The notes under the pieces: generated by a model
Databases searched by the model: none
What the model was told of the DNA's origin: nothing
The model's input: only the letters and a program-made list of their open reading frames with translations
Sequence record: NZ_CP118102.1
From: a plasmid
DNA: 64,000 nucleotides
Direction: 5' to 3' (one strand)
Program-made: the position numbers and the translations under genes
Part shown: positions 12,436 through 46,351 of the stretch, piece after piece
How the letters are laid out: every line of letters starts with the position of its first letter
Numbering within the stretch: the stretch's first letter is position 1

Positions 12436-12542
12436 AAGTTCAGTTACTGAAGGAAGTTATTTACTTTTATCTGTCACATATAAAGGAGTGGAAAATCAGT
12501 AACCGGTTATTTATAGTAATTTTAAAGGGAGGGTTAAGAGAA

Positions 12543-14881: not shown

Positions 14882-15174
14882 ATTCACCACCTCACTGGCT
14901 ATTATATCTAAACCTCAAACATTTTGATACTCGACCAGTAACTACATATTTGCGTCTTCCTGCCATAAATCTATGTAATATCCAGAAACTAATAAATGGT
15001 ATATTTTATGTATTGATAAATGTTATGTATATGTATTAATATTCTACTGCTTGCCATATATTACTCACTGAGTAATATGTTTCATAGTAAATTATATTTA
15101 ATAAAGGTTATGAATTAGCACAACATAAACACGATAAATATGGTAGGAAAAGATAAGTTTGGAGGTTTTTAAGA

Positions 15175-21458: not shown

Positions 21459-21540
21459 AATATGAGGCATGAATTGCCGTGGAGAACAAAGACACGCCAG
21501 AGGTGTGTTTTTTTGTTTCTTCACGGCTTTTTTTGTGCTT
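21459..21540 (+). promoter_or_regulatory. Conserved structured leader element, copy A: outer stem GCCGTG/CACGGC enclosing an intrinsic-terminator-like hairpin plus U7, then TTTTTGTGC
   Basis: Shares 'AATATGAGGC', GTGTGT-T7-G and 'CACGGCT-TTTTTGTGC' with the element at 43847-43930. The outer stem shows compensatory changes between the two copies. Confidence 0.5.
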
Positions 21541-21562
21541 AAAAACTGGGAGGAATTTAGAA

Positions 21563-22729
21563 ATGGCAAAAGCAGTGGAAGAACGTGTTACTACGGCAGT
21601 TAAGGCAGAGGGAGTATCGTTTACCGTTGATCATGAAGCGATTATGAACGTATTAACGACTTGTTCTAAGGTAGTGCCGAGAAGCAGCGTTGTTCCAATA
21701 CTGAAATGTATTAAGTTTGATTTAAACAAAGATGTTCTTTTCGTTACGGCAATGTCCGATTCCCAATCGGTTATTGTGAAACTGCAGGTAGAGAATACAG
21801 GAAATCAGGATGGGAGCTATCTATTTCCTTCAAGAGAAGGAATAGAACTTGTAAAACGTTTGCCAAGCGGTTCGCTATCGTTCAGTGTAAATGAGGCCTC
21901 TGTACGTATCTCGTACGGGAACAATGGTTCTGCATCGCTTAAGGTCTTGGATCCGGACGAGTATCCTCAGCTGCCGTCAGTGGCCGGAGTAAAGTTTGTG
22001 CCGGTTCCAATGGATGCCCTGCGAAAGGGTGCTGCAGCCCAGCGTTTTGCCTCAACTGATTCCAGTACTGCTATTCTCTGCGGTATTAATATCCGCAAAG
22101 TAGAGGATAAGCTTGGATTTACCGCGACGAATAGGCATCGGATATATGATTTCGTTTCTGACGTAAAGATACCAAATCCAGACGAGTTTCGTGGTGGAGT
22201 TATCGATGCTATAAATTTCAAAAGTATCGTAGATACTTTTAGAACCTCTGAAAGAATTGATTTTGCAGTGACGGATCATCATTTAATTTTAAGAGACCGT
22301 AGCAGCAATTCAGTGTACTTTGGTAGGCTAGTTGAGGGAAGTTATCCTGATATTGCGAAACTCTGTGAGATGCCTGAGCAGTCCTGTCTTGCAAGGATTC
22401 CGCTTGGGCGCCTCGACGAGACGTTGAACCGGATGTTATCGCTAGAATCCGAAAATCATCGTGTATATTTTTTACATGGAGATAACGGAGAGCTGGTTGT
22501 TAAATCGGAAAGCCACACAGGTGAGATTGTAGAGTCAATTGAAGGCTCCGTTGTAGATAAAAGTATGGGAATGATCAGGTTCAATGCTCGATATCTGAGG
22601 GATGCCCTTTCAGCCAGTGACCGGGATGTGAACGATGTTTTATTTAACATTACAGGTCAGAGTACTCCATCATATATTACGTATGATGGAGATCCATCGG
22701 TATTGAACGTTGTATTACCCGTGAGGTAA
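21563..22729 (+). CDS. dnaN-like: DnaN-like DNA polymerase III beta sliding-clamp homologue
   Basis: About 390 aa. N-terminal 'VSFTVDHEAIMNVLTTCSKVVPRSSVVPILKCIKFD' and 'LDPDEYPQLP' match the DnaN domain I-II pattern. RBS GGGAGG. Confidence 0.65.
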   Translation: MAKAVEERVTTAVKAEGVSFTVDHEAIMNVLTTCSKVVPRSSVVPILKCIKFDLNKDVLFVTAMSDSQSVIVKLQVENTGNQDGSYLFPSREGIELVKRLPSGSLSFSVNEASVRISYGNNGSASLKVLDPDEYPQLPSVAGVKFVPVPMDALRKGAAAQRFASTDSSTAILCGINIRKVEDKLGFTATNRHRIYDFVSDVKIPNPDEFRGGVIDAINFKSIVDTFRTSERIDFAVTDHHLILRDRSSNSVYFGRLVEGSYPDIAKLCEMPEQSCLARIPLGRLDETLNRMLSLESENHRVYFLHGDNGELVVKSESHTGEIVESIEGSVVDKSMGMIRFNARYLRDALSASDRDVNDVLFNITGQSTPSYITYDGDPSVLNVVLPVR

Positions 22730-22757: not shown

Positions 22758-23840
22758 ATGCGCGGCTCTTCTAATTTCTATTGGGGGTTAATAAATATGT
22801 CCGATAACATGAAGCGCATGTTTGATCGAATTATTAGAAACAAAATTCGTATGGGTAACTTTGAGACAACTGATCGAGATATGGACTGCGTACGAAAACT
22901 ATTACAATTTCCTGATCGGCCGTTCTCAGCTGCGGATTTTTGTGCAGGAAGTGGCCGTGCAATGGAGATTCTTACACAAGGTTCAAAGGCTGTAACGTTT
23001 GGTGTGGAACCTAATGAAGAGAAGTACCTGGAGCTCCGAGAGCGCGTACACCAAGCATGTTTTGGAGGCTATGAACAGTGCCGTATCTCTAAGGACTACT
23101 TCAGGCTCATATACTTAAATCCTCCCTATGATGATGATTCGGAATCAGAGGAGAGCAAGCGAGAGCGTAAAGAAAAGGTGTTCCTTCGGCACATCATTCA
23201 GTACTTGGCGGTTGACGGAATACTTATCTATAACATTCCGAGGCGACGTATGACTAAGGATATTGTCAATTTGCTAGTCACTAATCTGGATGAGATTAAT
23301 GTTTATCAATCTCATGACGATACATACGGTCAAGTATATGTTTTCGGTCGTAAACGATCTGTAAAGTTCATTGATCGACCGGAAGTACAAAGAATACTTG
23401 GATTAGTTGCTGAAGGAATTGTACTTAGTCGGTTACCTGAAGCAATAGATCCTATTTATAAAGTGCCGGCAGGGAACGTCACTCCAAAATACTTCAGATC
23501 GATAATCATGGACGTAGACCAGCTCAGGGTCGTTTCTTGCCATTCATCTTTGTCACGAAGAGGCATGGAATGGACGACACCTAAAGCACCTGCTTTGAAG
23601 CTGCAGCCGCTCCTTCCGGATAAAGAAATGCATAGGGTCCTAAGAATGGCCTCAGGCCGATTAAACGGAAAAGTTGGCAGCGGAGAACTTCTTCACGTTC
23701 TAAAAGGCATTGTGAAGAAGGATGCTACTACGGAAATTGAAAAAGTCGGGGATGAGACCATAGAGACGACAAGGGAAACCTTTAAGATTACCTTTCGTAT
23801 CGTGGACCGGTTTGGAAATATTCGAACGGTTCAGAGCTAA
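22758..23840 (+). CDS. N6-adenine DNA methyltransferase (motif I FCAGSG before motif IV NPPY), apparently an orphan
   Basis: FxGxG and NPPY motifs read directly. The C-terminal roughly 230 aa could be a target-recognition domain. No restriction-endonuclease partner recognised. Alternative start at 22797. Confidence 0.6.
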   Translation: MRGSSNFYWGLINMSDNMKRMFDRIIRNKIRMGNFETTDRDMDCVRKLLQFPDRPFSAADFCAGSGRAMEILTQGSKAVTFGVEPNEEKYLELRERVHQACFGGYEQCRISKDYFRLIYLNPPYDDDSESEESKRERKEKVFLRHIIQYLAVDGILIYNIPRRRMTKDIVNLLVTNLDEINVYQSHDDTYGQVYVFGRKRSVKFIDRPEVQRILGLVAEGIVLSRLPEAIDPIYKVPAGNVTPKYFRSIIMDVDQLRVVSCHSSLSRRGMEWTTPKAPALKLQPLLPDKEMHRVLRMASGRLNGKVGSGELLHVLKGIVKKDATTEIEKVGDETIETTRETFKITFRIVDRFGNIRTVQS

Positions 23841-23874: not shown

Positions 23875-24516
23875 ATGAAATTTATGGAGTTTACTCATAA
23901 GGACATATATGTGAAGGTTCATTGCTCACTATTAGTGACAAAGTATGATTCAACTACTAAAAATAATTATCTCATTTATACGAATGTTATAGATATTGAT
24001 TCGCGTGTGCAGGCAGTTTTTGCTCAATTTCATCATGCCAAGAAAGCAGAAGATGTAACTTTTCGTTTCTATCATGCACCGCGTATTGGAGAGAAAGGGT
24101 ATGATCGATCCTCTTTTTATATTAAACCCTATGGAAAATACAAGCATCTCTCACAGCGCGAAGATGAGACGCTGGTTACCGGAATTGTTGCCAGTGAAAG
24201 AGTTTTATCGCGCCAGGACCAAGGTTATTGTATTTTTGCATGGGATGGCAATATACACGAAAGACTTTTCTGGGCAATCGATGCTTACTATGAGACGCCA
24301 ATGCTAGAAGAGTGGATCCCTTACTTATATCTTCGGCTATTCCAGGATGGTTATCTCGTTCAACTTGATGTATATGATTACACGGGAGACTATCAAAACC
24401 TGGTTGCTTTTGAGCTGCTCGCTGGAGAGGAAATATTGGATGAGTATATATCTTATGGACTCAGAACAGGGGCAATTCAACTGGTTGAGGATATAAATGG
24501 GGAGGCCGTTTCATGA
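23875..24516 (+). CDS. Hypothetical protein, translationally coupled to the downstream helicase
   Basis: RBS GAGGGGG. Stop overlaps the helicase start (ATGA). Confidence 0.4.
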   Translation: MKFMEFTHKDIYVKVHCSLLVTKYDSTTKNNYLIYTNVIDIDSRVQAVFAQFHHAKKAEDVTFRFYHAPRIGEKGYDRSSFYIKPYGKYKHLSQREDETLVTGIVASERVLSRQDQGYCIFAWDGNIHERLFWAIDAYYETPMLEEWIPYLYLRLFQDGYLVQLDVYDYTGDYQNLVAFELLAGEEILDEYISYGLRTGAIQLVEDINGEAVS

Positions 24517-26777
24517 GTGAATCTTCAGAAATAAGCAATGTGGTGATTGAGGCAATTGACCCTGCTCTGGAAGAGAAAAAGGTTTCCTCTCTTTCCGATG
24601 TGGAATCTATTGGGGATTATTTAGGGTTATTTGGAGCAGACCTGATTAGACGTCTTAACGATGAATATGTACCAGTTCATCATCCAGGTCAAAATAAACC
24701 ACTCCAGTTGTTAGAGAACCTTAAGCGTCCATTATTTCAAGCACAAGCTCACGTCGTAACTGCATTAATTAAGGGGTTTCAGCGTCATCGTAATCTCTTA
24801 GTTATTGGTGAGCCTGGAACAGGGAAAACATCCGTCTCTATCTCAGTTTTTTATTCCCTAATCACAGAATTACTCCAGAAAAAATCTGGACGGGTTCTTT
24901 ATATGGTCCCAAATCATCTGATAAAGAAGACGAAGCGGGAATGGGGTATTCTGCTAGATAAGGATCTGTTTGAGGTTCACTTTCTATCAGACTATATTGA
25001 CGTTATCAAGCTCCGAGATAGCAGAAGATTGGAGACGAAACCTAAAAAAATTGAGGTTTACATCATTGCAAGGGATACTGCTAAACTAGGTTATATTTAC
25101 GAACCGGTTGCACATTGGTCGGACCGTACATATCAGCAGCAGTTTCAAAACAATGATGGGACAGTTCGAACTGTTGAAAAGGTTGCTTTTCGCGGATGGA
25201 GATGCCCCGATTGTGGTGGACAATTAATGAAAGAGAAAGAGGACAGTCTTGTACCGATGGAGTATGAGGACTTTTTTAATAAGCATGGAAAGCCTACGCG
25301 TAGAAAAACGAACTTGTACTGTTCTAATCAAGTACGCCTCTATAAAAATGTAGATCCCGACAAGGACGAGACCCGTATTTGTGGGTCAAGACTTTGGCAG
25401 GCGAAGAATTCGAAAAAATCATATATATCTGGTAAGCCGAAACCGGTTGCTGGGGTGGCGCCACGAAAAGTATCTCCTGCGGATTTGTTTAAGCGTTGGT
25501 TTAAAGGCAAATTTGACCTGGCCATCGGTGACGAATGCCATGAGTTAGCAGGAGGGAGCGCTCAAGCTCATGCTTTTCATGTATTTTTGAATTGTGCCAA
25601 ACGAGGGATCGCAATGACCGGAACTTTGTCCAATGGTTATGCTTCTTCCTTATTCGAATTGTTTTTCCGGATGTTTCCCTCTCGTCTGAAGCAGATGGGC
25701 TTTAATTGGGGAGACGTAGGAAAGTGGGTCGATTTGTACGGTGTACGGGAAAGGGTCACTAAAATACGTGATGACGGAGATTTGAACAGCTCTAGTAACG
25801 GGAAGTCGAAAAGGACAAGTGTTAAGGAGTTGCCGGCTGCCGCACCGCAGCTCTTCACGGACATACTCAGTGACGTTGCAGTTTTTATACAGATGGCTGA
25901 TATGTTCGAAGTCCTGCCGGAACTCAAAGAAGGACCGATGAGTGTTCCTCTTGAGGGTGAAAGAAGACTTATAAGCTGCAAAACCCAAATTGTTCGACGA
26001 CCAGGTAGAAAGAGAAAGATTGAAAAGAAAATGAGGTTACTTGCGCCGGATTGGTATCTCAGAAAAAATCTGACTGAAGTCGAAAATCGTCTGCGAGAAG
26101 CTGTGCAAAAAGAGCTCGCTGCAGGTGGCCAGTCGGTACTTCTAGGGAGCCTTGTGAATACACTTTTGAGTTATTCAGATGTCCCTTTCAATTTCGAAGG
26201 TGTCCTTCATCCGGATACAGGAGAATGCATAGTGTCGGATAGTTACCGGCTTAGTGAGCGCCTATTATATCCTAAGGAGCTTCAGATGATCAAGTTTGTC
26301 CGATCGCAGCTAAAGCTCGGGCGAAGGGTAGGCATTTATGCGACTTATACGGGGAAAATGGGTACTCTGCAGCGACTCTCTCAGTTACTTGAAGAAAGAG
26401 GGATAAAGACAGCCCTACTTGGAACAGAGGTAAAGGGACCAGATCGAGAAGAGTGGATTGCCGAAAGGGTAAGGGAAGGTGCTCAGGTAATACTGACGAA
26501 TCCAATCCTGGTCAGCACTGGCCTTGATTTATTGATGTTTCCTTCACTTTATTTCTATCAGACTGGGCACCGTCTGAATATTGTGCGGCAGGCATCAAGA
26601 CGGCATTGGCGGATAGGTCAGCCGAATAAATGTCTTACTGTTTACAACTCATATCAGGGGACAATGCAGGAGCTGGCCATTAATCTTATGGCAGCCAAAA
26701 TGAGCGCTGCCCAAGCCTTAGAAGGGGTACCGCCAACAAAACGCGGAAAACGTACGCTAAGCCCATTAATTGAGTAA
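24513..26777 (+). CDS. SNF2-family helicase, 3' end interrupted by the transposon (last 17 codons are read from the transposon inverted repeat)
   Basis: GEPGTGKT (motif I), DECHE (motif II), MTGTLSNGYASSLFELF (SNF2 motif III), QASRRHWRIGQ (motif VI). Internal CxxC...C zinc ribbon. The native reading frame continues at 33881. Confidence 0.7.
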   Translation: MSESSEISNVVIEAIDPALEEKKVSSLSDVESIGDYLGLFGADLIRRLNDEYVPVHHPGQNKPLQLLENLKRPLFQAQAHVVTALIKGFQRHRNLLVIGEPGTGKTSVSISVFYSLITELLQKKSGRVLYMVPNHLIKKTKREWGILLDKDLFEVHFLSDYIDVIKLRDSRRLETKPKKIEVYIIARDTAKLGYIYEPVAHWSDRTYQQQFQNNDGTVRTVEKVAFRGWRCPDCGGQLMKEKEDSLVPMEYEDFFNKHGKPTRRKTNLYCSNQVRLYKNVDPDKDETRICGSRLWQAKNSKKSYISGKPKPVAGVAPRKVSPADLFKRWFKGKFDLAIGDECHELAGGSAQAHAFHVFLNCAKRGIAMTGTLSNGYASSLFELFFRMFPSRLKQMGFNWGDVGKWVDLYGVRERVTKIRDDGDLNSSSNGKSKRTSVKELPAAAPQLFTDILSDVAVFIQMADMFEVLPELKEGPMSVPLEGERRLISCKTQIVRRPGRKRKIEKKMRLLAPDWYLRKNLTEVENRLREAVQKELAAGGQSVLLGSLVNTLLSYSDVPFNFEGVLHPDTGECIVSDSYRLSERLLYPKELQMIKFVRSQLKLGRRVGIYATYTGKMGTLQRLSQLLEERGIKTALLGTEVKGPDREEWIAERVREGAQVILTNPILVSTGLDLLMFPSLYFYQTGHRLNIVRQASRRHWRIGQPNKCLTVYNSYQGTMQELAINLMAAKMSAAQALEGVPPTKRGKRTLSPLIE
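26724..26761. repeat. Tn3-family terminal inverted repeat, left copy (GGGGTACCGCCAACAAAACGCGGAAAACGTACGCTAAG)
   Basis: Perfect 38-bp reverse complement of 33838-33875. Flanked by TAGAA. Confidence 0.9.
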
Positions 26778-26839
26778 TAAGCCGGTTTTCCCCGTACGCT
26801 AAAGGGGTACCGGCTCCGAAATTCGCAACGTGTTAATTG

Positions 26840-29797
26840 TCAGTAGAGAGGTTTCTTTAATGGCCGTAACGACGTTAGAGTTGTTGCTTGTTTTAGATCA
26901 AACTTGTACTCCCCTAGAAAATTAATATGTTCCCATCCTAGAGGTGAGGTATGTTGCATTAGTTCTTCTTTAAACGTTCCTTGGGTCTTTTTATATTCTG
27001 TTGCATGAGACAAATAGACAGTATTCCATACGCTGATTGCATTAATCAAAATGTTCAAGGCGCTGGCTCGTTGGAGTTGATCTTGCAGTGCGCGCTCCCG
27101 TAACTCCCCGTGTTTACCGAAGAAAATCGCTCTGGCCAGTGCGTTCATAGCCTCACCTTTATTCAGCCCCCTATGAATCTTCCGGCGCAGGGCTTCGCTT
27201 GATATGTAATCCAGAATAAAGATTGTCTTTTCAATGCGCCCCATTTCACGTAGAGCGGTTGCTAAGCGATTCTGCCGCGAGTAGGAACCGATCTTCCCCA
27301 TGATAAGTGATGCAGATACTGTCCCTTCTCGAATAGAATGGGCTAGCCGCAGCACATCATCATAATTTTCCTGAATGACCTTCGTATTGATTTGACCACG
27401 CAGCAGTTTCTCCAGTTTTGGGAAATCAGTAGGCTTCCCGATGATGTAAAGCTTAGAATCAGAAAGATCTCGTAAGCGCGGCGCAAATCTGAATCCGAGT
27501 AGTTGAGTCAAACCAAAAACTTGATCTGTATATCCTGCAGTGTCCGTATAATGTTCTTCGATGGTCAAGTCAGTTTCATGATGAAGTAGTCCATCGATCA
27601 CATGAACAGCATCCCTAGCATTCGTGTTAATCACTTTAGAATAGAAGCTTGAAAATTGATCACTGACAAAACGATAAATGGTTGCGCCCTTGCCAGTTCC
27701 GTAGTGCGGATTAGCATCCGCATGAAGCGCAGCTACGCCAATCGGCACCCTCATTCCGTCTGACGAAGACGTGGTGCCATCGCCCCAATAGGAGGGCAAA
27801 GATAACTTGTGGTGGAAGTTGACGAGGACAGCTTGAGCTTTATTCATTGCATCCTCATATAGCCGCCATTGTGCCGTATTGGCCATTTGCCGGTATGAAA
27901 TATCCGGCGTGGCATCCCCCATCTTGGTCAATCCAATGTTCGTTCCCATCGCCATCAGTGTTGCCATGAGAATTAACGTTTCTTCTTCATTGGGAATCCG
28001 ATTTGTTGAAGCATGGATAAATTGTTCATGAAAACCAGTCCAATGCGCTACCTCCATTAAGACCTCAGTCAATTTAATACGTGGAAGTAGTTCGTACAAG
28101 GATGAGCTAAAATTTCTGGCATCCTCCGGAGTATCTTTCTCTAGGCGGCTAATGTGAAGTTTTCCTTGCTCAAAGTTAATACCTTCTAGATCCTCAATGT
28201 TATTCGAAACCCATTCTAAGCGCTGTATCAGAGATGCGGTACGTTCGGCTAGGTAATCGCTCGCAGTCATGCTAACTACCAATTTTGTTTCATCAGGCTG
28301 AATACGGCTCCATTCATCTTTGGAGACAAGATACTCATCAAAATCTTTATGCTGCCGGCTCCCGACAATGGACACATCACCGGAGCGAACATAATTACGC
28401 AGCTCAGTTATTACAGCCATTTCGTAATAATGACGGTTAATCGTTCCGTCATCATCGTAGACATGCTTTTGCCAACGATTTGTTACAAAATTTAAGGGTG
28501 CGTCTTTTGGTACTTTACGTTTACCAGTTTCATTAATGTCCCTTATAACATCAATAGCCTTCATAAGTGGCTCTGCGGATTTATTAGAACGGAATTCCAA
28601 CGTTTTCAGCAGTGTTGGTGTATATTTGCGCAGCGTGTAAAACTTCTTCTCCAGCAAATCCAAATAGTCGTAATCAATGGGACGGGCCAGTCGCTTTGCT
28701 TCCTCTACAGATGCGACGAGCTGATCCCAGGGCATTACCGTCTCCAACGCAATAAATGGGTCTATGCCTTCGTCCCTAGCTTTTATGAGTGCTGCGCCAA
28801 GATCAGCATAATGAACCACCTTTTCGTTAATCGATTTTCCATTTTGTTTTTGGATTTCTTCTTGAGCCTTACGGCCTTTGGAATGTAGCTGTAATATCTG
28901 ACGGTCGTGAATTTCAAATGCTTGATCCGTTAAATCTTGTGTTAGATCGAGTAAATAAGCAACTAAAGTAGCATATTTCTTGGGGTCATCGAAACGACGG
29001 AAGGACTGCGGTTCATACCTTGCCCCGATTTTGGAGAGCTGACGTAATCGGTTTGGATGAATTCCCTTTGTATCGATTTGAAGCTGGACTTTTCGTATAT
29101 ATTCAAGTTTTTCAATGATCTTAAGGAAAGCATCCGGGGAACAGGTGCCTGGTACTTCTCTTAGCCATGCCAGATACGTTTTGTTGCTCTCCGGCATTGG
29201 GGATAGGATGTTTTCAAGTTTATCGACCTGCTCCACTGATAAGGAAGAAATAAGCATTTTATATATTTTCTCCTCGGCCCGTTGCCTCACTTCCCACACA
29301 ACCCGTTCGATTGTAGTCATCCCAGGTATAATGATTTTCTGTTTTCGTAATTCATCAAGGGCTACACGGATTAAATACATGGAGTTACCATTTTCTAACG
29401 AAAAATTCAGCATGATATTGGATAAGAACCGATATTCACGAAGCGTGAAGTTCCGATACCCATAGGTTTGCCGAATCTCCTCCATATGTTCTCGTCTAGT
29501 CGGTTCCCGTTGGGCATAAAGGGGAAATACATCAGGTGCCACGCCAACCTGCTTGGCAATGTAGCTTATTACAGAATCCGGTATGTGTTTCAAATCAGAT
29601 AAAGACCATCCTGGATAACGCAGGATGGCCAATTGAACGGCAAAGCCTAATCGGTTATGATCACGGCGATGTTTATTGATGATATCGAGATCGTGTTGCG
29701 AAAATGTATAGTACGTACCTAAATCCCAATCGTCGTCTGAAGGGATTTGCATAAATTCTGCGCGCTGATCTAATGTTAATAATTCCTTTCCTCTCAA
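26840..29797 (-). CDS. tnpA: Tn3-family DDE transposase
   Basis: 985 aa. N-terminal 'DWDLGTYYTFSQHDLDIINKHRRDHNRLGFAVQLAILRYPGW' is typical of Tn3-family TnpA. Confidence 0.9.
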   Translation of the reverse strand: MRGKELLTLDQRAEFMQIPSDDDWDLGTYYTFSQHDLDIINKHRRDHNRLGFAVQLAILRYPGWSLSDLKHIPDSVISYIAKQVGVAPDVFPLYAQREPTRREHMEEIRQTYGYRNFTLREYRFLSNIMLNFSLENGNSMYLIRVALDELRKQKIIIPGMTTIERVVWEVRQRAEEKIYKMLISSLSVEQVDKLENILSPMPESNKTYLAWLREVPGTCSPDAFLKIIEKLEYIRKVQLQIDTKGIHPNRLRQLSKIGARYEPQSFRRFDDPKKYATLVAYLLDLTQDLTDQAFEIHDRQILQLHSKGRKAQEEIQKQNGKSINEKVVHYADLGAALIKARDEGIDPFIALETVMPWDQLVASVEEAKRLARPIDYDYLDLLEKKFYTLRKYTPTLLKTLEFRSNKSAEPLMKAIDVIRDINETGKRKVPKDAPLNFVTNRWQKHVYDDDGTINRHYYEMAVITELRNYVRSGDVSIVGSRQHKDFDEYLVSKDEWSRIQPDETKLVVSMTASDYLAERTASLIQRLEWVSNNIEDLEGINFEQGKLHISRLEKDTPEDARNFSSSLYELLPRIKLTEVLMEVAHWTGFHEQFIHASTNRIPNEEETLILMATLMAMGTNIGLTKMGDATPDISYRQMANTAQWRLYEDAMNKAQAVLVNFHHKLSLPSYWGDGTTSSSDGMRVPIGVAALHADANPHYGTGKGATIYRFVSDQFSSFYSKVINTNARDAVHVIDGLLHHETDLTIEEHYTDTAGYTDQVFGLTQLLGFRFAPRLRDLSDSKLYIIGKPTDFPKLEKLLRGQINTKVIQENYDDVLRLAHSIREGTVSASLIMGKIGSYSRQNRLATALREMGRIEKTIFILDYISSEALRRKIHRGLNKGEAMNALARAIFFGKHGELRERALQDQLQRASALNILINAISVWNTVYLSHATEYKKTQGTFKEELMQHTSPLGWEHINFLGEYKFDLKQATTLTSLRPLKKPLY

Positions 29798-29846
29798 TGG
29801 TTACACACCTTTCACTAAAATCAGAAGTTCAGTCAATAGGAGATGT

Positions 29847-30428
29847 TCAGGTCACCTGAAGGCTTTGTGTAGTCTTATTCCGGTTTGTAAGTGTTTGATA
29901 GATTTTTGCTTTAGATACACCGGTTCGTTCTGTTATTTCCTTAATGGTGTACTTTTCACTATCGTAAAGTGTAAGAGCCATGTCAATTTTGTTTTTATCC
30001 ATTGGAGGACGACCGCCTTTCCTGCCTCTCGCACGTGCAGCCTGTAATCCAGCAATGGTTCGCTCTCGGATTGTCTCTGCTTCCATCTCCGCCAGTCCAG
30101 CCATGATAGCAAAGAAAAGTTTCCCAGCGGGCGTACTCGTATCAACACCAAGAGTAATGATCTGCAGTCCAATCCCTATTTCCTGAAGGCCATGCGATAA
30201 TTCGATTAGTTGCCGCGTGGTTCTTCCCAAACGATCCAGCTTCCAAATGACAAGCGTATCACCTGGTCTCAAATATTCTAGGCAACGGGTCAGCTCCACT
30301 CGATCACTTTTCTTCCCAGAAGCCTTCTCCTCAAATATTCGCTCGCAGCCAGCAGCTTTTAACGTGTCGATCTGTAGGTTCAGTGATTGATCAGCTGTCG
30401 AGACACGAGCATAACCAATTTTGGCCAC
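29847..30428 (-). CDS. tnpR: Serine recombinase (resolvase) with a C-terminal HTH
   Basis: 'GYARVSTADQ' catalytic-serine motif. About 190 aa. Confidence 0.9.
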   Translation of the reverse strand: MAKIGYARVSTADQSLNLQIDTLKAAGCERIFEEKASGKKSDRVELTRCLEYLRPGDTLVIWKLDRLGRTTRQLIELSHGLQEIGIGLQIITLGVDTSTPAGKLFFAIMAGLAEMEAETIRERTIAGLQAARARGRKGGRPPMDKNKIDMALTLYDSEKYTIKEITERTGVSKAKIYQTLTNRNKTTQSLQVT

Positions 30429-30690
30429 ATGAATATCTCCTTTTGTCTATTAAACATATATTTATGATAATTTATACACTTTGAATTTTATACGACTTAA
30501 TAGACAATAACAATGCTATTTCTTACTGTATTTTAAGCTATGCACAAAAAGTATACAAAACGATCGTTTTTTAGACCCGACAATAGATACAACAAGCTGA
30601 TATATAATAAAACGCAGGACGCGGCGGTGAAGTAGCTTTTGTGATTCAACTAGATGGTAGCATATTCAACTTCTTGAAGGGAAATAATGT
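30429..30690. promoter_or_regulatory. Probable res (resolution) site and tnpR promoter region
   Basis: AT-rich region between tnpR and merR containing tgtctatta/taatagaca inverted motifs. Position is standard for Tn3-family elements. Confidence 0.4.
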
Positions 30691-30693
30691 TCC

Positions 30694-30725
30694 TTGACCA
30701 TGTACCATGGTACATGGTCTATACT
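30694..30725 (+). promoter_or_regulatory. mer promoter with MerR operator: TTGACC, 20-bp spacer containing the ATGTACCATGGTACAT dyad, TATACT
   Basis: Perfect 16-bp palindrome between -35 and -10 elements with over-long spacing. This is the hallmark of MerR-type promoters. Confidence 0.65.
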
Positions 30726-30744
30726 TTATTTAGAGGTGATGAAA

Positions 30745-31170
30745 ATGAATTATCGCTCCGGAGATATTTCTAAATTGTGTAACGTTAACAAAGAAACATT
30801 AAGATATTACGAACGAAAAGGTCTGATTCATGAACCAGTAAGATCGGATGCTGGCTACAGGCTTTATCCGGAAGAAACGATAAACCGAATCATGTTCATT
30901 AAACGCATACAGGAGCTTGGTTTTACATTGTCTGAAATTGATAAATTGCTTGGTGTTGTTGATAAAGACGATGTGAGATGTGCGGGTATGAATGATTTCG
31001 TTGTTCAAAAGCTGGAAGATGTTCAGTCGAAAATTAGAGACTTTCAACGAATCGAAACGATGCTAAAAGATTTAAAAGACCGCTGTCCAGATGAAAAAGC
31101 GATACACGAATGCCCAATCATCGAAGCGCTCATTGACAATAATCAAAAGGAAAAGGAGGAAGTCCAATGA
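30745..31170 (+). CDS. merR: MerR-family Hg(II)-responsive regulator
   Basis: N-terminal HTH (ISKLCNVNKETLRYYERKGLI). C-terminal Cys residues. RBS AGAGGTGA. The longer ORF from 30694 covers the promoter and is rejected. Confidence 0.8.
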   Translation: MNYRSGDISKLCNVNKETLRYYERKGLIHEPVRSDAGYRLYPEETINRIMFIKRIQELGFTLSEIDKLLGVVDKDDVRCAGMNDFVVQKLEDVQSKIRDFQRIETMLKDLKDRCPDEKAIHECPIIEALIDNNQKEKEEVQ

Positions 31171-31418
31171 AAGAAAATGCAAAAAAAATAGGTTGGGGCT
31201 TTTTAGCTCTGCTTTCCTGTCCTTGCCATCTTGTTTTGATTCTCCCTTTACTTGCGGGAACTACATTTGGAGCGTATTTTGCTCTCCATCAAACAGCCGT
31301 CAGTGTTATTTTAGGAATCGTATTTGTAATTTCTCTTGTCATGATGTTTAAACGAGCCAGCAAACAAGCAAAAACCGATGAATCACACGATTGCTGCTCA
31401 GTTCCGGAGCGAAAATGA
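31167..31418 (+). CDS. merE: MerE-like mercury transport membrane protein
   Basis: 'LLSCPCHLVLILPLLAGTTFGAY' matches the MerE 'LTCPCHLPILAAVLAGTTAGAF' region. RBS AAAGGAGGA. Confidence 0.7.
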   Translation: MKENAKKIGWGFLALLSCPCHLVLILPLLAGTTFGAYFALHQTAVSVILGIVFVISLVMMFKRASKQAKTDESHDCCSVPERK

Positions 31419-31423
31419 GGTGA

Positions 31424-31735
31424 ATGATTTTGAGAGAAAAAATGACTAGCTTGGCAACGATATTTTCAGCGTTTCTTATGTCCGGCTGTTGCCTCGGGCC
31501 CTTAATTCTCATTCCGTTTGGGTTATCAGGTTTTGCAGGAACGCTTGCAATTTTTTCAATCAAGTACCAACTGTTTCTTATGGTCATGACGATATTATTT
31601 CTTGGTGTATCGTTTTATTTGGTTTATGGACGAAAATGCAAAAAGAAAAGTACGGTCATCACATTATGGATATCGACCGTTTTGGTTTTAGGAGCATTTT
31701 TATATTTATGGTTGGCTGAAAGTGGACTGTTATAA
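31424..31735 (+). CDS. merT: MerT mercuric ion transport protein (Gram-positive type)
   Basis: Three TM segments. Vicinal 'GCC' in TM1. Start codon uncertain (ATG 31424 or TTG 31430). Confidence 0.6.
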   Translation: MILREKMTSLATIFSAFLMSGCCLGPLILIPFGLSGFAGTLAIFSIKYQLFLMVMTILFLGVSFYLVYGRKCKKKSTVITLWISTVLVLGAFLYLWLAESGLL

Positions 31736-31751
31736 GAAAGAGGTGTGTTAC

Positions 31752-32081
31752 GTGAGAGCAACAATGGGAATTATGATGTTATTAACTCTTTTATTATTGG
31801 GTACTGCTTGTGGTAACAATGAAAATACGGTGGAAGCTGCAGCCGCGCAAAGTACACCCGTTGCAAATGGATCAGCGACGTTCACGGTGACGGGACTTGA
31901 TTGCTGCCCGCCTTCAGTGATTCAAGATTTAATTTCAAAGGTCGATGGGGTTAGCAAAGTAGACATAGAACCCATGGGAAGCAAAGGGAAAGTTACGGTT
32001 TCCTTTGATGATAAAAAAACTGATTTAAAGCAGATTCAAACATCGGTTACAAAATATGGATTTGGCGTAATAGGAGGATAA
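31752..32081 (+). CDS. merP: MerP-like Hg-binding lipoprotein (heavy-metal-associated fold, atypical 'GLDCC' site)
   Basis: Lipoprotein-like N-terminus (LLGTAC). A metal-binding domain between merT and merA. GTG start with SD AAGAGGTG. Confidence 0.5.
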   Translation: MRATMGIMMLLTLLLLGTACGNNENTVEAAAAQSTPVANGSATFTVTGLDCCPPSVIQDLISKVDGVSKVDIEPMGSKGKVTVSFDDKKTDLKQIQTSVTKYGFGVIGG

Positions 32082-32084
32082 AAA

Positions 32085-33725
32085 ATGAAAAAGTACCGTG
32101 TACATGTGCAAGGCATGACTTGCACCGGCTGTGAAGAGCACGTTGCAACGGCACTTGAAAGCATTGGAGCTGCGAATATTGAGGCGAGCTTTCGCCGCAA
32201 TGAAGCCACGTTTGAATTACCGGATGACGTTGCGATCGAAACAGCCCAAAAAGCCATCAACGAGGCAAAATATCAATCCGGAGATGTGGAAGTTATCGAA
32301 TCCCATGATGCTCCGGTTCTCGGCGATGAGGGCGACTATGATTTTCTTATCATCGGTTCCGGTGGGGCAGCGTTTTCCGCCGCGATTCAAGCGGTCGAAC
32401 ATGGTGCAAAAGTGGCGATCATCGAGCAAGGAACGGTAGGCGGAACCTGCGTAAATGTGGGCTGCGTGCCATCGAAAACCCTGCTGCGTGCCGGTGAAAT
32501 CAATCACTTAGCCAATAATAACCCTTTCTTGGGGCTAACTACATCTGCAGGAACGGTGGATTTGGCTGAGCTAGTGAAACAAAAAAATGAACTTGTAACC
32601 GAAATGCGTGAACAAAAGTATGAACATTTGATTGGTGAGTACGGATTTGAACTCATTCGCGGAGAGGCAAAATTCGTTGATGAAAAAACCATCGAGGTCG
32701 GTGGACGAAAGCTTACCGCTAAACGATTTTTAATCGCGACAGGAGCTTCACCATCGATTCCGGATATTCCAGGATTAAAAGACGCTAACTATTTAACAAG
32801 TACGTCACTGCTTAACCTTAAAGAATTGCCAAAAAGACTTGCTGTGATTGGCTCAGGTTATATTGCACTGGAATTAGGTCAGTTGTTTCATAATTTAGGA
32901 TCAGAAGTTACGCTGTTGCAAAGAAGTCCTCGGTTGTTAAAAGAGTATGACCCTGAAATTTCCGAATCTGTGACAAAAGCAGTCACCGAACAAGGGATAA
33001 ATCTGATTACCCGTGTCACGTATGAGCGCGTTGAAACTAATGGGGATTTGAAACAAATTCATATTGCAGTAAACGGCGAAAAGAAAGTCATCGAAGCCGA
33101 GCAGTTGCTTATTGCAACCGGCAGAAAACCGAATACCGAAGCACTGAATCTTCGTGCAGCGAACGTCATTATTGGTACCAAATGCGAAATCGTGGTCGAT
33201 GATTTTTTAAAAACCTCAAATCCTAGGATTTACGCCGCAGGCGATGTGACGATGGGTCCGCAGTTTGTGTACGTGGCTGCCTATGAAGGACGCATCGCGG
33301 CGGATAATGCAGTTGGTGGGTTAGAAAAAAAAGTAAACCTTGAAACTGTTCCGGGGGTCACGTTCACTTCACCTGCGGTGGCGACGGTAGGACTTACGGA
33401 AGAACAAGCCAGGGCAAAAGGATATGATGTGAAGACTTCTGTACTTCCTTTGGATTCGGTGCCTAGAGCACTTGTAAATCGCGAAACAACAGGCGTTTTT
33501 AAATTAGTTGCTGACTCCAAGTCGTTAAAGGTGCTCGGTGTTCATATTGTCGCAGAAAATGCAGGAGACGTGATTTACGCCGCAACACTTGCTGTAAAAT
33601 TCGGTTTAACGGTCGAGGATCTACGCGACAGCCTTGCTCCTTATTTAACGATGGCAGAAGGATTAAAACTGGCAGCGATTACGTTTAATAAAGATGTATC
33701 CAAATTATCCTGTTGCGCTGGGTAA
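32085..33725 (+). CDS. merA: Mercuric reductase
   Basis: N-terminal HMA domain ([11 protein letters not shown]). '[13 protein letters not shown]' redox disulfide. C-terminal 'CCAG'. 546 aa. Confidence 0.9.
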
Positions 33726-33837
33726 GATATATTATCTGTGGTAATTAACATGGTTGAGGAGAACGATTTCAATAAACTACAGGCTGCCCAGGCAGCCTGT
33801 TTTTGCGCATATATGGCTGTTTCTCTTATAAGTATAC

Positions 33838-33875
33838 CTTAGCGTACGTTTTCCGCGTTTTGTTGGCGGTACCCC
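33838..33875. repeat. Tn3-family terminal inverted repeat, right copy
   Basis: Exact reverse complement of 26724-26761. Followed by TAGAA. Confidence 0.9.
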
Positions 33876-34495
33876 TAGAAGGTCAGTTTTCCCAGGAAGG
33901 CTTATCAGCTCTTACTGAAGGTTCTGGAGGGAGCCTTGCTACGGAATTGGCGAAACGCTTTGTTGGTAATAATATCGAAGGTGTGGAAAGTGCTGAGTCC
34001 ATTTGGGGCAAGATGACTATATATGCGACTCAGTTTATTCCGGAATCTTCGGTACAAGCTTTGGTACAGGAAGATACTATTAACGACAATTCCAGTGATT
34101 TTGTTGAGGTGGAAGTTCCTTCAGTAGATGTTATTGAAGCGGGATCCCTGCAAGAAGTACTCCTTAAATGGGCAGATGAGTCTATACCAGCTGATCTTCA
34201 TTCACGATTTGAGCAACAAATAAAATATGTTGTGGAGCGAGTAAAGCAAGGTGTAGAGGGCTTAGAGTTCTCCTGCAGTGCTGAGTCTACGGTTCTAAGC
34301 TGGGATTGTTCAAAAGCACCAAGAGATGCGATTGATTTTCGTCGATGGGTTTTCAACTTGACGAATAAGATTGTTCATGAGCAGTCTACATCGAAACAGG
34401 AGAAAATTAGACTTGTGGTCGAAGGTAATAAACCAGCTGCCAAAACGAAGAAGAAATACAACGTGGGAGCTGGCCAGATAGCTTTCAAATTTTGA
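33876..34495 (+). pseudogene. Orphaned 3' fragment (about 204 codons) of the SNF2 helicase gene, severed by the transposon insertion
   Basis: Removing the transposon and one TAGAA copy joins ...AQALE to GQFSQEGLSAL... in frame, giving a 941-aa ORF that ends at 34495. Confidence 0.8.
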
Positions 34496-34668
34496 AACTC
34501 GAATCAGTGATCTGAAAATGAGTTTGATAATACAGAAAATCGTTATAAAAAAAAGGTGCCGGCTTGCCGGCATCTTTTTCTGTTTTTATTTATGAAAAAA
34601 TTTTGTGAAAATCAACTTCCGTTATATGATAAATACAAAATATACGGAAAAAGGGAGATTTTTATCTA

Positions 34669-39560: not shown

Positions 39561-39766
39561 AGTACGATATCTTGAACAAGAACATTCAACAGTCGCATTA
39601 ATATGCGGCTTTTTCTCGTGGTTCAATCAATATATTATCTTGTAAGTAAGTAGGTAGGTACTTAATTTTCATTTAACAAAAAGTTTTGCAATTAGATAGT
39701 CTTATTGTACTATATATGTATATTAGTATATTAACTAACATACAATAATTGTTGAGGGGCGGTTCT

Positions 39767-41686
39767 GTGGAAGAGTTTATTCAAAGAGCACTCGGGGCTG
39801 GGGGACATCTGTCGAAGCTAGTAAAAGGTTATTCTCCACGTTCACCGCAGATGCTCATATCAAACAAAGTGGGGGCAGCGTTAGAGGGAGAAAAGCATCT
39901 ATTGGCTGAAGCAGGTACAGGTACAGGGAAGTCGCTTGGCTATTTGATACCTGCAGCCAAGTGGGCTGTTGAAAACAACAAGACTGTTATTGTTTGTACC
40001 CACACGATCCCGCTAATGACTCAGATAGTAAATGTAGAACTGCCTCGTGTACAACAGATTTTAAAAATGGAGCATCAAAATCTTAAGTATCAACTTGTTA
40101 AGGGAAAGTCACATTACGTTTGCTACTCGAAGCTTGAGAATTTGTGGCAAGAAACGCTACGGAGCATAAATGAAGAAGCTAAAACAGTGCAGAAGATCTT
40201 CAAAAAAGTGACCCGAGAGTATGTAAATGATCGTACAGGGCTTGGATTCGATGTAGAAGATAGCTTATGGAAGAAAATATCTGCGAGCAATTGTCCAGCG
40301 ATTAATAAGCCTGAGTCATGCGTAATTGAAGAGCTGAAAGAAAAAATGATTCAATCCCATATCATTGTTACAAATCATGCATATTTCTTCTCAGATCTTG
40401 CCATTCGGCGGAAGACAGGAAATGGTTCTCTTCCAAATTACGATGCCGTCATTTTCGATGAGGCTCATGAAATGGAAGATGTCTGCTGCCAAATCTTTGA
40501 GAAGTCTGCTGACATAAACCAGTTTGAGTCTTTATTCGATCAATTGTTCCAACGTGACATCTTTAAAGAATTAGATCATGGTGCGCAGCTTAAGCTATCT
40601 CAACTTCGCCAGGACATCCACCGTAACCTTGACCAAGTATTTGCTGAGATTGGAAATGAAATGGGGAACAAAGCATATCAGCTCTTAGACAAACAGATTG
40701 ATGTATCAGAGGCTTGCTCTTTAATCAAGGATTTCTTGGAGACATTAAAAAGTATGAATGTCCGTGGTGCTTCCGATATTCTTGATCAGCTCTTTGAGTA
40801 TAATGATGACCTTGATTTCATTAGTAACAATGCTAAACGATCCTGGGCATACTGGGCTACTGTTCGTGGCCGTGATCAGATCACCCTGCATGCTGCTCCA
40901 CTGTTTCCAAAAGTTGTACTGGCTTCTAGCTTATTCGATAAAGTGCCTGTTATTCTAACAAGCGCTACGATGTCCAACAGCGGGAACTTTTCTTTCTTTG
41001 CTGGACGGGTTGGAGTCAAAGAGTATGATTCAGTCGTTGTCGGTAGTCCGTTTGATTACATAAACAAGACGATGATTATCGTACCGGATGATGCACCTGA
41101 ACCAAACAGTCCTGGTTTCAACGGATATACTGCAGAAAAGCTAGAGGAGATAACGATGTATACTGGCGGTCGTATGCTTGTCCTTTTTACAAGTTTTGAT
41201 GCGATGAACCAGGTCGCTCGTTCTTTCCAAAAGTATTGTAGTGAAGTGGGTTATCATCTATTGGTTCAATATCCTGGATGTAATCGTGAAGAACTCATCC
41301 AACAACTAAAAAATGAGCCAAGAACAATCGTATTTGGGTCATCTAGTTTCTGGACCGGTGTTGATGTCGCAGGAGAAGCTCTTACTACAGTAGTGATCCC
41401 TAGATTACCTTTTCCACATCCCGACGATCCTTTAATAAAAGCACAAATTGAGCTTCTTGAGAAAGCCAATCGAAGCAGCTTTTTCGACTATATGTTTCCC
41501 AAGATGATATTTAAACTTAAACAGGGTTTTGGCCGTTTAAATCGCTCAGTTCATTGCCAAGGAGCTGTTATCATCTTGGATAACCGAATGAGAACGAAGC
41601 GATATAAAGGACTTATTATTAAATCACTACCGAAGTGTCAATATTCATCTACAGTATCGGATTTAGTACATATCCTGCCGGTATAG
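39767..41686 (+). CDS. DinG/Rad3-like ATP-dependent DNA helicase
   Basis: 'AEAGTGTGKSLGYLIPA' Walker A. 'VIFDEAHEMED' DEAH box. C-terminal 'SFWTGVDVAGE...VVIPRLPFPHPDDP'. GTG start with SD GAGGGG. Confidence 0.75.
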   Translation: MEEFIQRALGAGGHLSKLVKGYSPRSPQMLISNKVGAALEGEKHLLAEAGTGTGKSLGYLIPAAKWAVENNKTVIVCTHTIPLMTQIVNVELPRVQQILKMEHQNLKYQLVKGKSHYVCYSKLENLWQETLRSINEEAKTVQKIFKKVTREYVNDRTGLGFDVEDSLWKKISASNCPAINKPESCVIEELKEKMIQSHIIVTNHAYFFSDLAIRRKTGNGSLPNYDAVIFDEAHEMEDVCCQIFEKSADINQFESLFDQLFQRDIFKELDHGAQLKLSQLRQDIHRNLDQVFAEIGNEMGNKAYQLLDKQIDVSEACSLIKDFLETLKSMNVRGASDILDQLFEYNDDLDFISNNAKRSWAYWATVRGRDQITLHAAPLFPKVVLASSLFDKVPVILTSATMSNSGNFSFFAGRVGVKEYDSVVVGSPFDYINKTMIIVPDDAPEPNSPGFNGYTAEKLEEITMYTGGRMLVLFTSFDAMNQVARSFQKYCSEVGYHLLVQYPGCNREELIQQLKNEPRTIVFGSSSFWTGVDVAGEALTTVVIPRLPFPHPDDPLIKAQIELLEKANRSSFFDYMFPKMIFKLKQGFGRLNRSVHCQGAVIILDNRMRTKRYKGLIIKSLPKCQYSSTVSDLVHILPV

Positions 41687-41705: not shown

Positions 41706-42425
41706 ATGATGGGAAGAGCACATTTAGTTATCAGTACGGGGCTATCCTTATCTGCACTCCAACTAGCTGATCAAGAAATTACAATACCCGTAATAGTAGT
41801 TGCTGTTTTAAGTTCACTACTTCCTGATATCGATGAACCAAATTCTCTTTTAGTTTCAAGAGCAATTCCAAAAACAGTAATTCGCACATTCCAGCTGCTT
41901 CTCTTATTGGCTGCAGCTGCTGTCATCTTTCTTGGAGAAGCGTATTCTCCGTGGAATTATATGTTGGCCATAGCTGCAGCAATCATTACCTTTCTCCCGA
42001 ATCGAACATTGAAGAATGTCATTATGATTTTAACGGGAATCATACTGATTGCTTTCGGCAGCCAAATCTCGCCTTGGAACTATATTGGAGGTTCCTTACT
42101 TATACTTGTGTCGTTCCTGCCGCACCGAGGATTAACTCATACAATCTATGGATTGGTTGGTTGGACCTTGATCTTATATTTGACTACAGGTGATATATCT
42201 ATCTGGCTAGCTGGAGGGTTATCCTACATGCTTCATCTACTTGCAGATGCATTAACGAACCGTGGTATACGAATTCTCCCACCATTTAAGTACGTACTGA
42301 GATTTCGGATTATGAGTACAGGAAGTTTCAGAGGTTCCCTAGTTGAATATCTTTGCATGGGAGTGACACTTGGTGTGGTCTGGCTCACATTTTTCTTAGA
42401 TAAAAATTTATTTACTGGAGGCTAA
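41706..42425 (+). CDS. Membrane-bound metal-dependent hydrolase family protein (DUF457/YdjM-like)
   Basis: Multi-TM protein. 'HRGLTHT' and 'HLLADALT' conserved-His motifs. Confidence 0.55.
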   Translation: MMGRAHLVISTGLSLSALQLADQEITIPVIVVAVLSSLLPDIDEPNSLLVSRAIPKTVIRTFQLLLLLAAAAVIFLGEAYSPWNYMLAIAAAIITFLPNRTLKNVIMILTGIILIAFGSQISPWNYIGGSLLILVSFLPHRGLTHTIYGLVGWTLILYLTTGDISIWLAGGLSYMLHLLADALTNRGIRILPPFKYVLRFRIMSTGSFRGSLVEYLCMGVTLGVVWLTFFLDKNLFTGG

Positions 42426-44307: not shown

Positions 44308-44589
44308 ATGGAGAAGTCCTACTACTGTTCAGAACAGGTTGGACAAATGCAGGCTACCTACGACTCTTTAGTCATGCTGAAGATGATCGAGGTTGCTGGA
44401 TGTGATATCGTGAACAACCCAGTCAATTACTACTGTTATGATTGGGGGGATCAATATCCCGTATTTGTTACATGCATTAAAAGAGTATTTGGAGGTTGGT
44501 GGCGCAGCTGGTGGAGTTTAACGTGCTGTTGGCGGTGCTTGCGTTGTCGTTCGTTGAAGAGTTGTCAGCATTGGAGGTATTGGTGGTAG
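44308..44589 (+). CDS. Hypothetical small protein; 3' end overlaps the convergent repeat-protein gene
   Basis: RBS GAGGAG. The C-terminal 35 aa read antisense to the neighbouring gene, so the true stop is uncertain. Confidence 0.3.
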   Translation: MEKSYYCSEQVGQMQATYDSLVMLKMIEVAGCDIVNNPVNYYCYDWGDQYPVFVTCIKRVFGGWWRSWWSLTCCWRCLRCRSLKSCQHWRYWW

Positions 44590-45799: not shown

Positions 45800-46051
45800 T
45801 ACTTCTATCCTCTCCTTTGATGGGGGTAGTTGACTACCCTTTAGTATATTTGCCTGCTATTAACTCGGAAACGGCGAATCTACCTATAAATTTTTGTCCA
45901 TCTATCAAATACACAGAAAATGGGCAAAAAAAGACCTTGTCTCGCTCTCGGCAAGACAAGGTAAGGTCCATGACAAAGGAGGTGTAGCTACCCTATGTTT
46001 GATATATGCAGGAGGACGGGTTTTCGCTCCCCTTGCCCTGGACAGTCAACC

Positions 46052-46089
46052 GGGGTATTGCCAACAAAACGCGGAAAGCGTACGCTAAG
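46052..46089. repeat. Solitary third copy of the Tn3-family inverted repeat (35 of 38 identical; same orientation as the left copy)
   Basis: GGGGTATTGCCAACAAAACGCGGAAAGCGTACGCTAAG against GGGGTACCGCCAACAAAACGCGGAAAACGTACGCTAAG. Confidence 0.8.
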
Positions 46090-46323: not shown

Positions 46324-46351
46324 GGAAAAAAAGGGGAGCCGTGGGGGCTCC
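46324..46351 (-). terminator. Rho-independent terminator for the minus-strand ABC operon
   Basis: gggagcc-cccac-ggctccc hairpin followed by a T-run on the minus strand. Confidence 0.6.

Follow-up and report, generated by a model that had tools for sequence, protein, structure and literature searches.

Evidence for a recent insertion of a Tn3-family mercury-resistance transposon into an SNF2-type helicase gene of a Paenibacillus urinalis plasmid

We analysed a stretch of 64,000 nucleotides of plasmid record NZ_CP118102.1 (the window; positions count from its first letter), which lies on a 227,239-base-pair (bp) plasmid contig of Paenibacillus urinalis. A gene for a helicase of the SNF2 family is interrupted there by a 7,152-bp element carrying a mercury-resistance (mer) operon. 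An earlier reading of the letters, made without database searches (the sequence-only reading), had proposed that a Tn3-family transposon split this gene and that the two halves can be rejoined exactly. The data presented below are, almost certainly, explained as a whole by the insertion of a Tn3-family mer transposon into the plasmid helicase gene.

Structure and age of the insertion

Alignment of the two ends of the element confirmed that 26724-26761 (GGGGTACCGCCAACAAAACGCGGAAAACGTACGCTAAG) and 33838-33875 are exact reverse complements of each other, so that the element spans 26724-33875 (7,152 bp). The repeat finder returned a single long inverted pair in this region (I1, 39 nucleotides, 100% identity); by hand arithmetic, the chance expectation of a perfect 38-bp inverted pair in 64 kilobases (kb) is about 1e-14. 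TAGAA is found directly outside both ends, at 26719-26723 and 33876-33880, and this direct repeat stops at 5 bp, as expected of the target duplication that had been proposed (the chance of a matching 5-mer is about 1/1024, also by hand arithmetic). When 24513-26723 was joined to 33881-34495, which removes the element and one copy of TAGAA, the product comprised 941 codons and a stop with zero internal stops, and the predicted in-frame restoration was thus obtained. In its present form, the open reading frame (ORF) at 24513-26777 encodes 754 amino acids (aa), with the C-terminus ...AAQALE-GVPPTKRGKRTLSPLIE. The 17 extra residues of this product had been counted correctly; their source, however, is the 38-bp repeat together with 13 nucleotides of subterminal transposon sequence, and not the repeat alone. 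The features of the disrupted gene are the following.

24513-26723 (+): 5' part of the helicase gene, codons 1-737, with both RecA-like lobes, the Cys4 insertion, motifs I-VI and brace helix I
26719-26723: target-site duplication TAGAA, left copy; present as a single copy at empty sites
26724-26761 (+): 38-bp terminal inverted repeat at the tnpA end (GGGG...CTAAG), exact reverse complement of the other end
26724-26777 (+): 17 foreign codons and stop that close the truncated helicase, from the ORF translation
33838-33875 (-): 38-bp terminal inverted repeat at the mer end, from the repeat comparison
33876-33880: target-site duplication TAGAA, right copy, read from the sequence
33881-34495 (+): orphaned 3' part of the helicase gene, codons 738-941 and stop, with the post-brace segment, acidic linker, folded domain and tail
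34550-34579 (+): strong terminator hairpin after the helicase stop, from hairpin prediction

A search with the stitched product found the same protein, uninterrupted, in nature. The 941-aa sequence is identical residue for residue (100%) to P0089, a protein annotated on other P. urinalis plasmids and placed in the same 90% cluster as the truncated protein of the window. The intact protein is encoded by the complete plasmids NZ_CP118105.1 and NZ_CP118110.1, from human-blood isolates. The uninterrupted locus that the sequence-only reading had suggested looking for was found on NZ_CP118105.1, where the empty site reads ...GCCCAAGCCTTAGAAGGTCAGTTT... with one TAGAA, and on the Logan contig L001 (SRR31381164), which has the same empty site, again with one TAGAA. 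The flanks of NZ_CP118105.1 are 99.976% identical to the window over 8,175 bp and 99.985% over 6,620 bp. Since these sister plasmids, at about 2 differences per 10 kb, are without the element, the insertion is younger than the split from them. The perfect repeats and duplication, the empty and near-identical sister plasmids and the exact restoration of the protein together point to a very recent event, and the earlier description of a recent, clean insertion is borne out.

Two other explanations of this structure were considered. The insertion could be an assembly chimera, for example a repeat-induced misjoin, and the short-read Logan contigs L003 and L004 do break exactly at the element ends, so that the element behaves as an assembly repeat. 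A misjoin would not, however, yield a perfect 5-bp target duplication with both halves of the gene in register; the same architecture, with different duplications, occurs in three other genomes, and the annotated proteins of the 227-kb contig match the window exactly. We regard a chimera as very improbable. That the pieces are unrelated genes in frame by accident, the helicase naturally ending near residue 737, would agree with their annotation by the Prokaryotic Genome Annotation Pipeline as two proteins, WDH85258.1 (754 aa, 'DEAD/DEAH box helicase family protein') and WDH85264.1 (182 aa, 'hypothetical protein'), but it can be set aside with near certainty, as the joined product is identical to P0089, more than 30 homologues (926-991 aa; Paenibacillus, Cohnella and Thermobacillus) run uninterrupted over the junction and cover 97-100% of the stitched protein, homologues as distant as 24% identity all keep G738 and F740, which follow the break, and the alignments of SNF2 proteins of the PDB continue past it (that of SWR1 to profile position 799). 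The case that the sequence-only reading had itself named as its refutation is thereby excluded.

The mercury-resistance transposon and its relatives

The attribution of the element to the mercury-resistance transposons of the Tn3 family was supported by matches to a Tn3-family transposase, a resolvase and a mer operon. Five curated NCBIfam cut-offs were passed, those of TnpA, MerR, MerT, MerP and MerA.

26793-26842 (+): subterminal copy of the inner end of the inverted repeat, CGTACGCTAAA, followed by a degenerate unit resembling the repeat, GGGGTACCGG, from the repeat finder
26840-29797 (-): tnpA, Tn3-family DDE transposase, 985 aa (possibly 970 aa from Met16); NF033527 1036 bits (cut-off 500), PF01526 E = 6e-155, PF13700 E = 5e-59
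29847-30428 (-): tnpR, serine resolvase, 193 aa; PF00239 E = 1.3e-44, HTH_7
30429-30693: candidate res region, the tnpR-merR spacer of 265 bp, from position only
30694-30725 (+): MerR-type promoter, TTGACC, 20-bp spacer, TATACT, read from the sequence
30745-31170 (+): merR, 141 aa from the ATG at 30745; TIGR02051 167.6 bits (cut-off 150.85)
31167-31418 (+): merE-like small membrane protein; PF05052 46.2 bits (cut-off 22.8)
31424-31735 (+): merT, RC607 type; NF033560 158.1 bits (cut-off 130)
31722-32081 (+): merP, Gram-positive type; NF033553 158.7 bits (cut-off 110)
32085-33725 (+): merA, mercuric reductase, 546 aa, with one N-terminal HMA domain; TIGR02053 649 bits (cut-off 454), Pfam
33779-33800: G+C-rich hairpin followed by a T-run, after merA, from hairpin prediction

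The 20-bp spacer of the promoter upstream of merR contains a perfect 12+12 dyad at 30696-30719, and such an over-long spacer is the layout typical of MerR promoters. The hairpin at 33779-33800 is a likely terminator that would halt mer transcripts ahead of the right end. No merB was found, every ORF of at least 50 aa inside 26724-33875 being otherwise assigned, and the element is therefore predicted to confer narrow-spectrum mercury resistance. Two assignments weigh against so complete a picture of the transposon. The score of the merE-like gene with the NCBIfam MerE model is 55, under the cut-off of 80, and the placing of res is a positional guess only: the tnpR-merR spacer holds the inverted 11-mers TTGTCTATTAA and TTAATAGACAA plus the related AATAGATACAA, which could be res subsites.

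The tnpA end is more elaborate than the other. A copy of CGTACGCTAAA lies about 70-80 bp inside the repeat, and this extended structure is present at the tnpA end only; the degenerate unit that follows (GGGGTACCGGCTCCGAAATTCGCAA...) matches the real inverted repeat at 19 of its first 26 positions and ends at the tnpA stop codon. The subterminal motif CGTACGCTAAG recurs about 66-78 bp inside many elements that share the inverted repeat and have unrelated cargo, and it is inverted in the copy of the element from P. gyeongsangnamensis. This subterminal repeat may serve as an additional binding site for the transposase, or it may be what remains of an earlier terminus.

The element was compared with described transposons of Bacillales. 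The ends of Tn3-family elements follow the convention GGGG...TAAG (PMC6920998). Like TnMERI1, Tn5084 and Tn5085 of Bacillus and Priestia (PMC6920998), the element has tnpA, tnpR and a candidate res region beside an RC607-type mer operon, 38-bp GGGG...TAAG ends, a 5-bp duplication and a Bacillales host, and in NCBIfam its MerT fits the RC607 exception model and its MerP the Gram-positive one. The TnMERI1/Tn5084 group is 11.5-14.2 kb long and broad-spectrum (PMC6920998), whereas the element, compared by description, is 7.15 kb long and has neither merB nor a second merR. Moreover, its MerR is only 61% identical to the MerR of the TnMERI1 host, Bacillus megaterium (PDB 4UA1), which makes it related to the TnMERI1/Tn5084 group but no copy of a member. 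Paenibacillus is where its lineage occurs. TnARS1 of Bacillus sp. MB24 also has GGGG...TAAG ends, an extended end of about 78 bp and, as here, the 5-bp duplication TAGAA (PMC6920998). The second CGTACGCTAA(G) motif about 70-80 bp inside the tnpA end of our element is a further likeness to TnARS1, which differs in that its cargo is ars and not mer; in our element only 38-39 bp are inverted-repeated between the ends.

Other copies of the element were found outside P. urinalis. In Paenibacillus sp. 11B the transposase is identical and the full element, with the duplication ATAAA, differs at 1 of 7,152 bp; its site there, which is unrelated to that in the window, lies downstream of a dinG-ydjM pair. 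The copy of Paenibacillus sp. DMB5 is 97.2% identical, with the duplication AAATA, and that of P. gyeongsangnamensis 96.2% identical, with the duplication ATCCC. With the window, these are four independent insertions, each with its own, mostly A+T-rich, 5-bp duplication, which is the signature of Tn3-family transposition. As the same element is found at three other sites, each with its own duplication, it is or recently was mobile. The exact 38-bp repeat was present in 22 other genomic stretches of Paenibacillus, Priestia and Tumebacillus, in a search that covered one genome per species. A megablast of the whole element against PLSDB found no near-identical element, the only match being a 74%-identical tnpA on a Bacillus pseudomycoides plasmid. 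The element is a compact and, by prediction, narrow-spectrum addition to the class II mer transposons of Bacillales, present but unremarked in public genomes.

The window has a dinG-ydjM pair of its own. A DinG/XPD-like helicase of 645 aa (39749-41686, +) matches the PADLOC model of the type IV-A CRISPR-associated DinG (E 5.8e-118) and is followed by a YdjM-family gene (41706-42425); the same pair flanks the transposon copy of sp. 11B. No csf genes were recognised near the DinG-like gene, and a CRISPR array is absent from the window.

The interrupted helicase, its lost C-terminus and its gene neighbours

The helicase carries motif I (GEPGTGKT) at about residue 99, motif II (DECH) at 340-343, motif III (TGT) at 369-371 and motif VI (QASRRHWRIGQ) at 693-703. 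All of them precede residue 737, and the 754-aa product thus keeps motifs I, II, III and VI, as the sequence-only reading had noted. Its assignment to the SNF2 family was also borne out, by a family profile and by the fold, though it is invisible to Pfam. Only ResIII and DEAD were matched in Pfam (E<=0.01), PF00176 (SNF2-rel_dom) being recorded for homologues at 23-38% identity and not for the helicase itself, and a single-sequence search of the PDB gave nothing significant. In contrast, a profile of 18 family members matched in the PDB only SNF2 ATPases, namely CHD1L, SWR1, INO80, CHD4, Snf2, Rad54 and the Rad54-like enzyme of Sulfolobus, with a best E of 8e-21 and alignments that extend through DECH, QASRRHWRIGQ and the next helix. 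The AlphaFold model (mean predicted local distance difference test score 72, core 80-94) gave Foldseek matches of which the top 50 are all SNF2-type, including the bacterial RapA and ZorD, with probability 1.00. These results support, at the profile and fold level, that the helicase belongs to the SNF2 family. The helicase family of SCO1167/SCO6262 was rejected, its NCBIfam score of 20 bits being far under the cut-off of 1200.

With the SNF2 ATPases (Rad54, ISWI, CHD1L, INO80; RapA, ZorD) the helicase shares the two RecA lobes, the DExH box, the brace helix and a motif VI, QASRRHWRIGQ, comparable to the SNF2 consensus QAxxRxHRIGQ. It differs from them by a large Cys4-cluster insertion between motifs Ia and II, by a unique C-terminal domain and tail, and by its context, as it is plasmid-borne and paired with a DUF6094 methyltransferase, away from any chromatin. 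One homologue of 1,425 aa, P0053, carries intein and homing-endonuclease domains (PF14890, PF14528, PF05204).

The break falls at the end of a helix (residues 718-736) that aligns with SNF2 brace helix I, the junction reading ...KLsaalaleG|qF against ...KRqLdnvviqeG|dF in SWR1. K729, within this helix, is invariant, as are G738 and F740. The segment that comes after brace helix I in SNF2 enzymes folds back against lobe 1. The lost part had been described as a 204-aa C-terminal domain. The number of residues stands; they do not, however, form one domain but four parts, that is, a conserved post-brace segment (738-783), a variable, acidic and disordered linker, a small folded domain (819-897), for which no structural relative was detected, and a basic, disordered, motif-bearing tail ending GQIAFKF.

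Upstream of the helicase, the window encodes in a row a DnaN paralogue, a DUF6094 methyltransferase and a 213-aa protein.

21479-22729 (+): DnaN (beta sliding clamp) paralogue, with the N, central and C domains of Pfam DNA_pol3_beta
22758-23840 (+): putative DUF6094 methyltransferase, PF19587 E = 1.4e-29
23875-24516 (+): 213-aa protein, overlapping the helicase start; fused to the helicase in P. sonchi

DUF6094 adjoins the helicase homologues in all seven plasmid loci inspected (7/7), including those of Thermoanaerobacterium and Alicyclobacillus, and is fused to the helicase in distant homologues of 1,500 aa (P0055-P0064). The 213-aa protein, which has no match in Pfam, NCBIfam or PADLOC, is fused to the helicase N-terminus in P. 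sonchi-type plasmids, in proteins of 1,143-1,160 aa (P0035-P0037; L029 4299-7730); the 1,143-aa coding sequence of P. sonchi covers both. AcrIIA9-family, ADP-ribosyltransferase and Rad52 genes neighbour the module in other plasmids. Modules of a DUF6094 methyltransferase and a helicase were reportedly described by Iyer et al. in 2017 as 'polyvalent protein' components of plasmids and conjugative elements. The likeness to these modules lies in DUF6094 adjoining or being fused to a helicase, and the difference in the separate genes found here, in a row with a DnaN paralogue. PADLOC gave matches of mad2 to DUF6094 (E 4e-6) and of mad8 to the helicase (E 1e-4); these are weak, and membership of the module in the MADS systems was set aside. 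A literature search on DUF6094 and MADS turned up only plant MADS-box papers. Elsewhere in the window, a 567-aa protein (17-1720, +) has an LPD1 domain ('large polyvalent protein-associated domain 1'), which is typical of the polyvalent proteins of conjugative elements and phages.

The tail lost by the helicase is predicted to be disordered (C-terminal tail peptide, KKKYNVGAGQIAFKF), and 47 of 48 close homologues have as their last six residues a match to Q-[LIVMFY]-x-[LFMI]-x-[FL], a pattern matched elsewhere in these proteins once in 35,121 positions. The ending is a strictly conserved QxAFNF, Q-[IFYLMV]-A-F-N-F being recorded for 47 of 48 homologues; more broadly, the motif reads Qx[AL]Fx[FL]. 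Homologues at 28-38% identity, with otherwise unrelated tails, end QLVLLF, QLAFAF, QLMFDF or QVLLF-AL. Both the pattern and its setting match the consensus of bacterial beta-clamp-binding peptides, QL[S/D]LF or QxxLF, which is often found at a C-terminus that is flexible (PMC12309361). Four Paenibacillaceae plasmids have a DnaN gene upstream, among them those of P. sp. Cedars, P. sonchi and Thermobacillus composti. On the strength of the clamp-like motif at a conserved tail and of the upstream DnaN gene row, we propose that the tail may tether the translocase to the beta sliding clamp, a tether that the insertion would remove. That the tail is a clamp-binding motif, and the DnaN-DUF6094-SNF2 plasmid module a clamp-tethered DNA-tracking machine, is a tentative reading to which we give a little less than even confidence. 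Two considerations tell against it. It rests on a short linear motif and a gene neighbourhood, and in Thermoanaerobacterium and Alicyclobacillus the motif is retained by homologues that have no DnaN gene close by; the host clamp, or a different molecule altogether, may thus be the partner.

Alternatively, the tail may make contact with a different protein, for example the DUF6094 methyltransferase or the 213-aa product, or be a signal for secretion or transfer. C-terminal tails that are basic and disordered are also used by conjugative systems as signals for type IV secretion. The motif is not an exact match to QL[S/D]LF, the canonical pentapeptide, and DUF6094 is a more constant neighbour of the helicase than DnaN. 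On the other hand, clamp motifs are usually set in just this way, with Q-hydrophobic-x-(L/F)-x-(F/L) closing the protein behind a basic, flexible linker; distant homologues have near-canonical versions (QLVLLF, QVLLF), and a dedicated DnaN gene is co-encoded in the Paenibacillaceae plasmids. We consider another role of the tail a real possibility, held at somewhat less than even confidence. Besides its own DnaN, the plasmid encodes a Y-family (ImpB/DinB-type) DNA polymerase (8290-9561, +). Polymerases of this family are well-known clients of the clamp, so that more than one plasmid protein may use the plasmid-encoded clamp.

As for the course of events, the element would have entered at codon 737/738 by DDE transposition, duplicating TAGAA; we infer replicative transposition with cointegrate resolution and activity of the mer operon, by which the plasmid would gain inducible Hg(II) resistance. 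The truncated 754-aa helicase would retain both RecA lobes and brace helix I and be deprived of the post-brace segment, the C-terminal domain and the tail, and we expect that it has lost its activity or its coupling to partner proteins. Inspection of 33726-33900 revealed no promoter-like site on the + strand; with no such site reading outward at the right end, expression of the 3' fragment is improbable. A polar effect on downstream genes was considered and rejected, since the strong terminator at 34550-34579 follows the helicase stop and the helicase is the last gene of its unit.

The expected loss of function has one point against it, in that partial activity could survive in the truncated helicase, whose ATPase motifs are all present. 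The truncation could then be neutral or selected, the C-terminal 204 residues being dispensable or auto-inhibitory and the 754-aa protein an active, possibly deregulated, translocase. In keeping with this, brace helix I is kept along with the ATPase motifs, and lesions in other plasmids suggest that the gene is often damaged without plasmid loss. In L001, a 38-bp frameshift deletion (window 34279-34316; L001 12571-12680) yields the 875-aa P0001, in which the tail is lost, and which is either an independent second truncation or an assembly error; in Paenibacillus sp. Cedars, the helicase gene is split by a frameshift. Both lesions hint that the plasmid can survive without this gene, but both could be sequencing or assembly errors. 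The segment 738-783 and the terminal motif are, moreover, among the best conserved parts of the family, which argues for a function, and we judge a neutral or selected truncation unlikely.

The surrounding plasmid and the meaning of the insertion

Several other regions of the window were annotated. A 1,722-aa RHS-repeat polymorphic toxin with PT-HINT and C-terminal Ntox33 domains (2160-7328, +) is followed by two small ORFs (7358-8293) that could be immunity genes. Two divergent Rep_3-type initiator genes (12429-13778, +; 13769-14890, -) and a gene for a DnaA_N/helix-turn-helix protein (10362-11348, -) are surrounded by iteron-like tandem repeats of 22-23 bp at 10261-10323, 11786-11895 and 14990-15041; the region 10261-15041 is probably the plasmid replication region.

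The G+C content jumps from 35-45% to 55-64% at about 46000-64000. The genes of this block encode parts of a sugar-type ABC transporter, a TetR regulator, an M28 peptidase, a GNAT protein, a P450-BM3-like fusion of cytochrome P450 and reductase (1,082 aa) and an old-yellow-enzyme-type reductase, and an intergenic tandem array at 54582-55116 is made of 10.7 copies of a 50-bp G+C-rich unit (84% match). It looks as if the plasmid had acquired this block from a foreign source. A 440-aa ORF without Pfam match (44477-45799, -), located where the G+C content shifts, contains tandem repeats of 132 bp (x4, 96% identical) and 93 bp (x2.5), and may encode a repetitive surface or linker protein.

The analysis corrects the public annotation, WDH85258.1 and WDH85264.1 being two halves of one disrupted gene, and fixes both ends of a 7.15-kb mer transposon to the base. 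This transposon has moved very recently and is in circulation on plasmids and chromosomes of Paenibacillus, human-blood isolates included. The DUF6094 methyltransferase and the SNF2 helicase constitute a module that is common on plasmids though uncharacterised. Only one lead goes beyond routine annotation, namely that this plasmid-borne SNF2 helicase has a conserved tail resembling a clamp motif. Isogenic plasmids with and without the tail already occur in nature and, were the clamp reading true, the P. urinalis plasmid would provide a natural tail-less allele for testing the tether, and the module might methylate or remodel newly replicated plasmid DNA.

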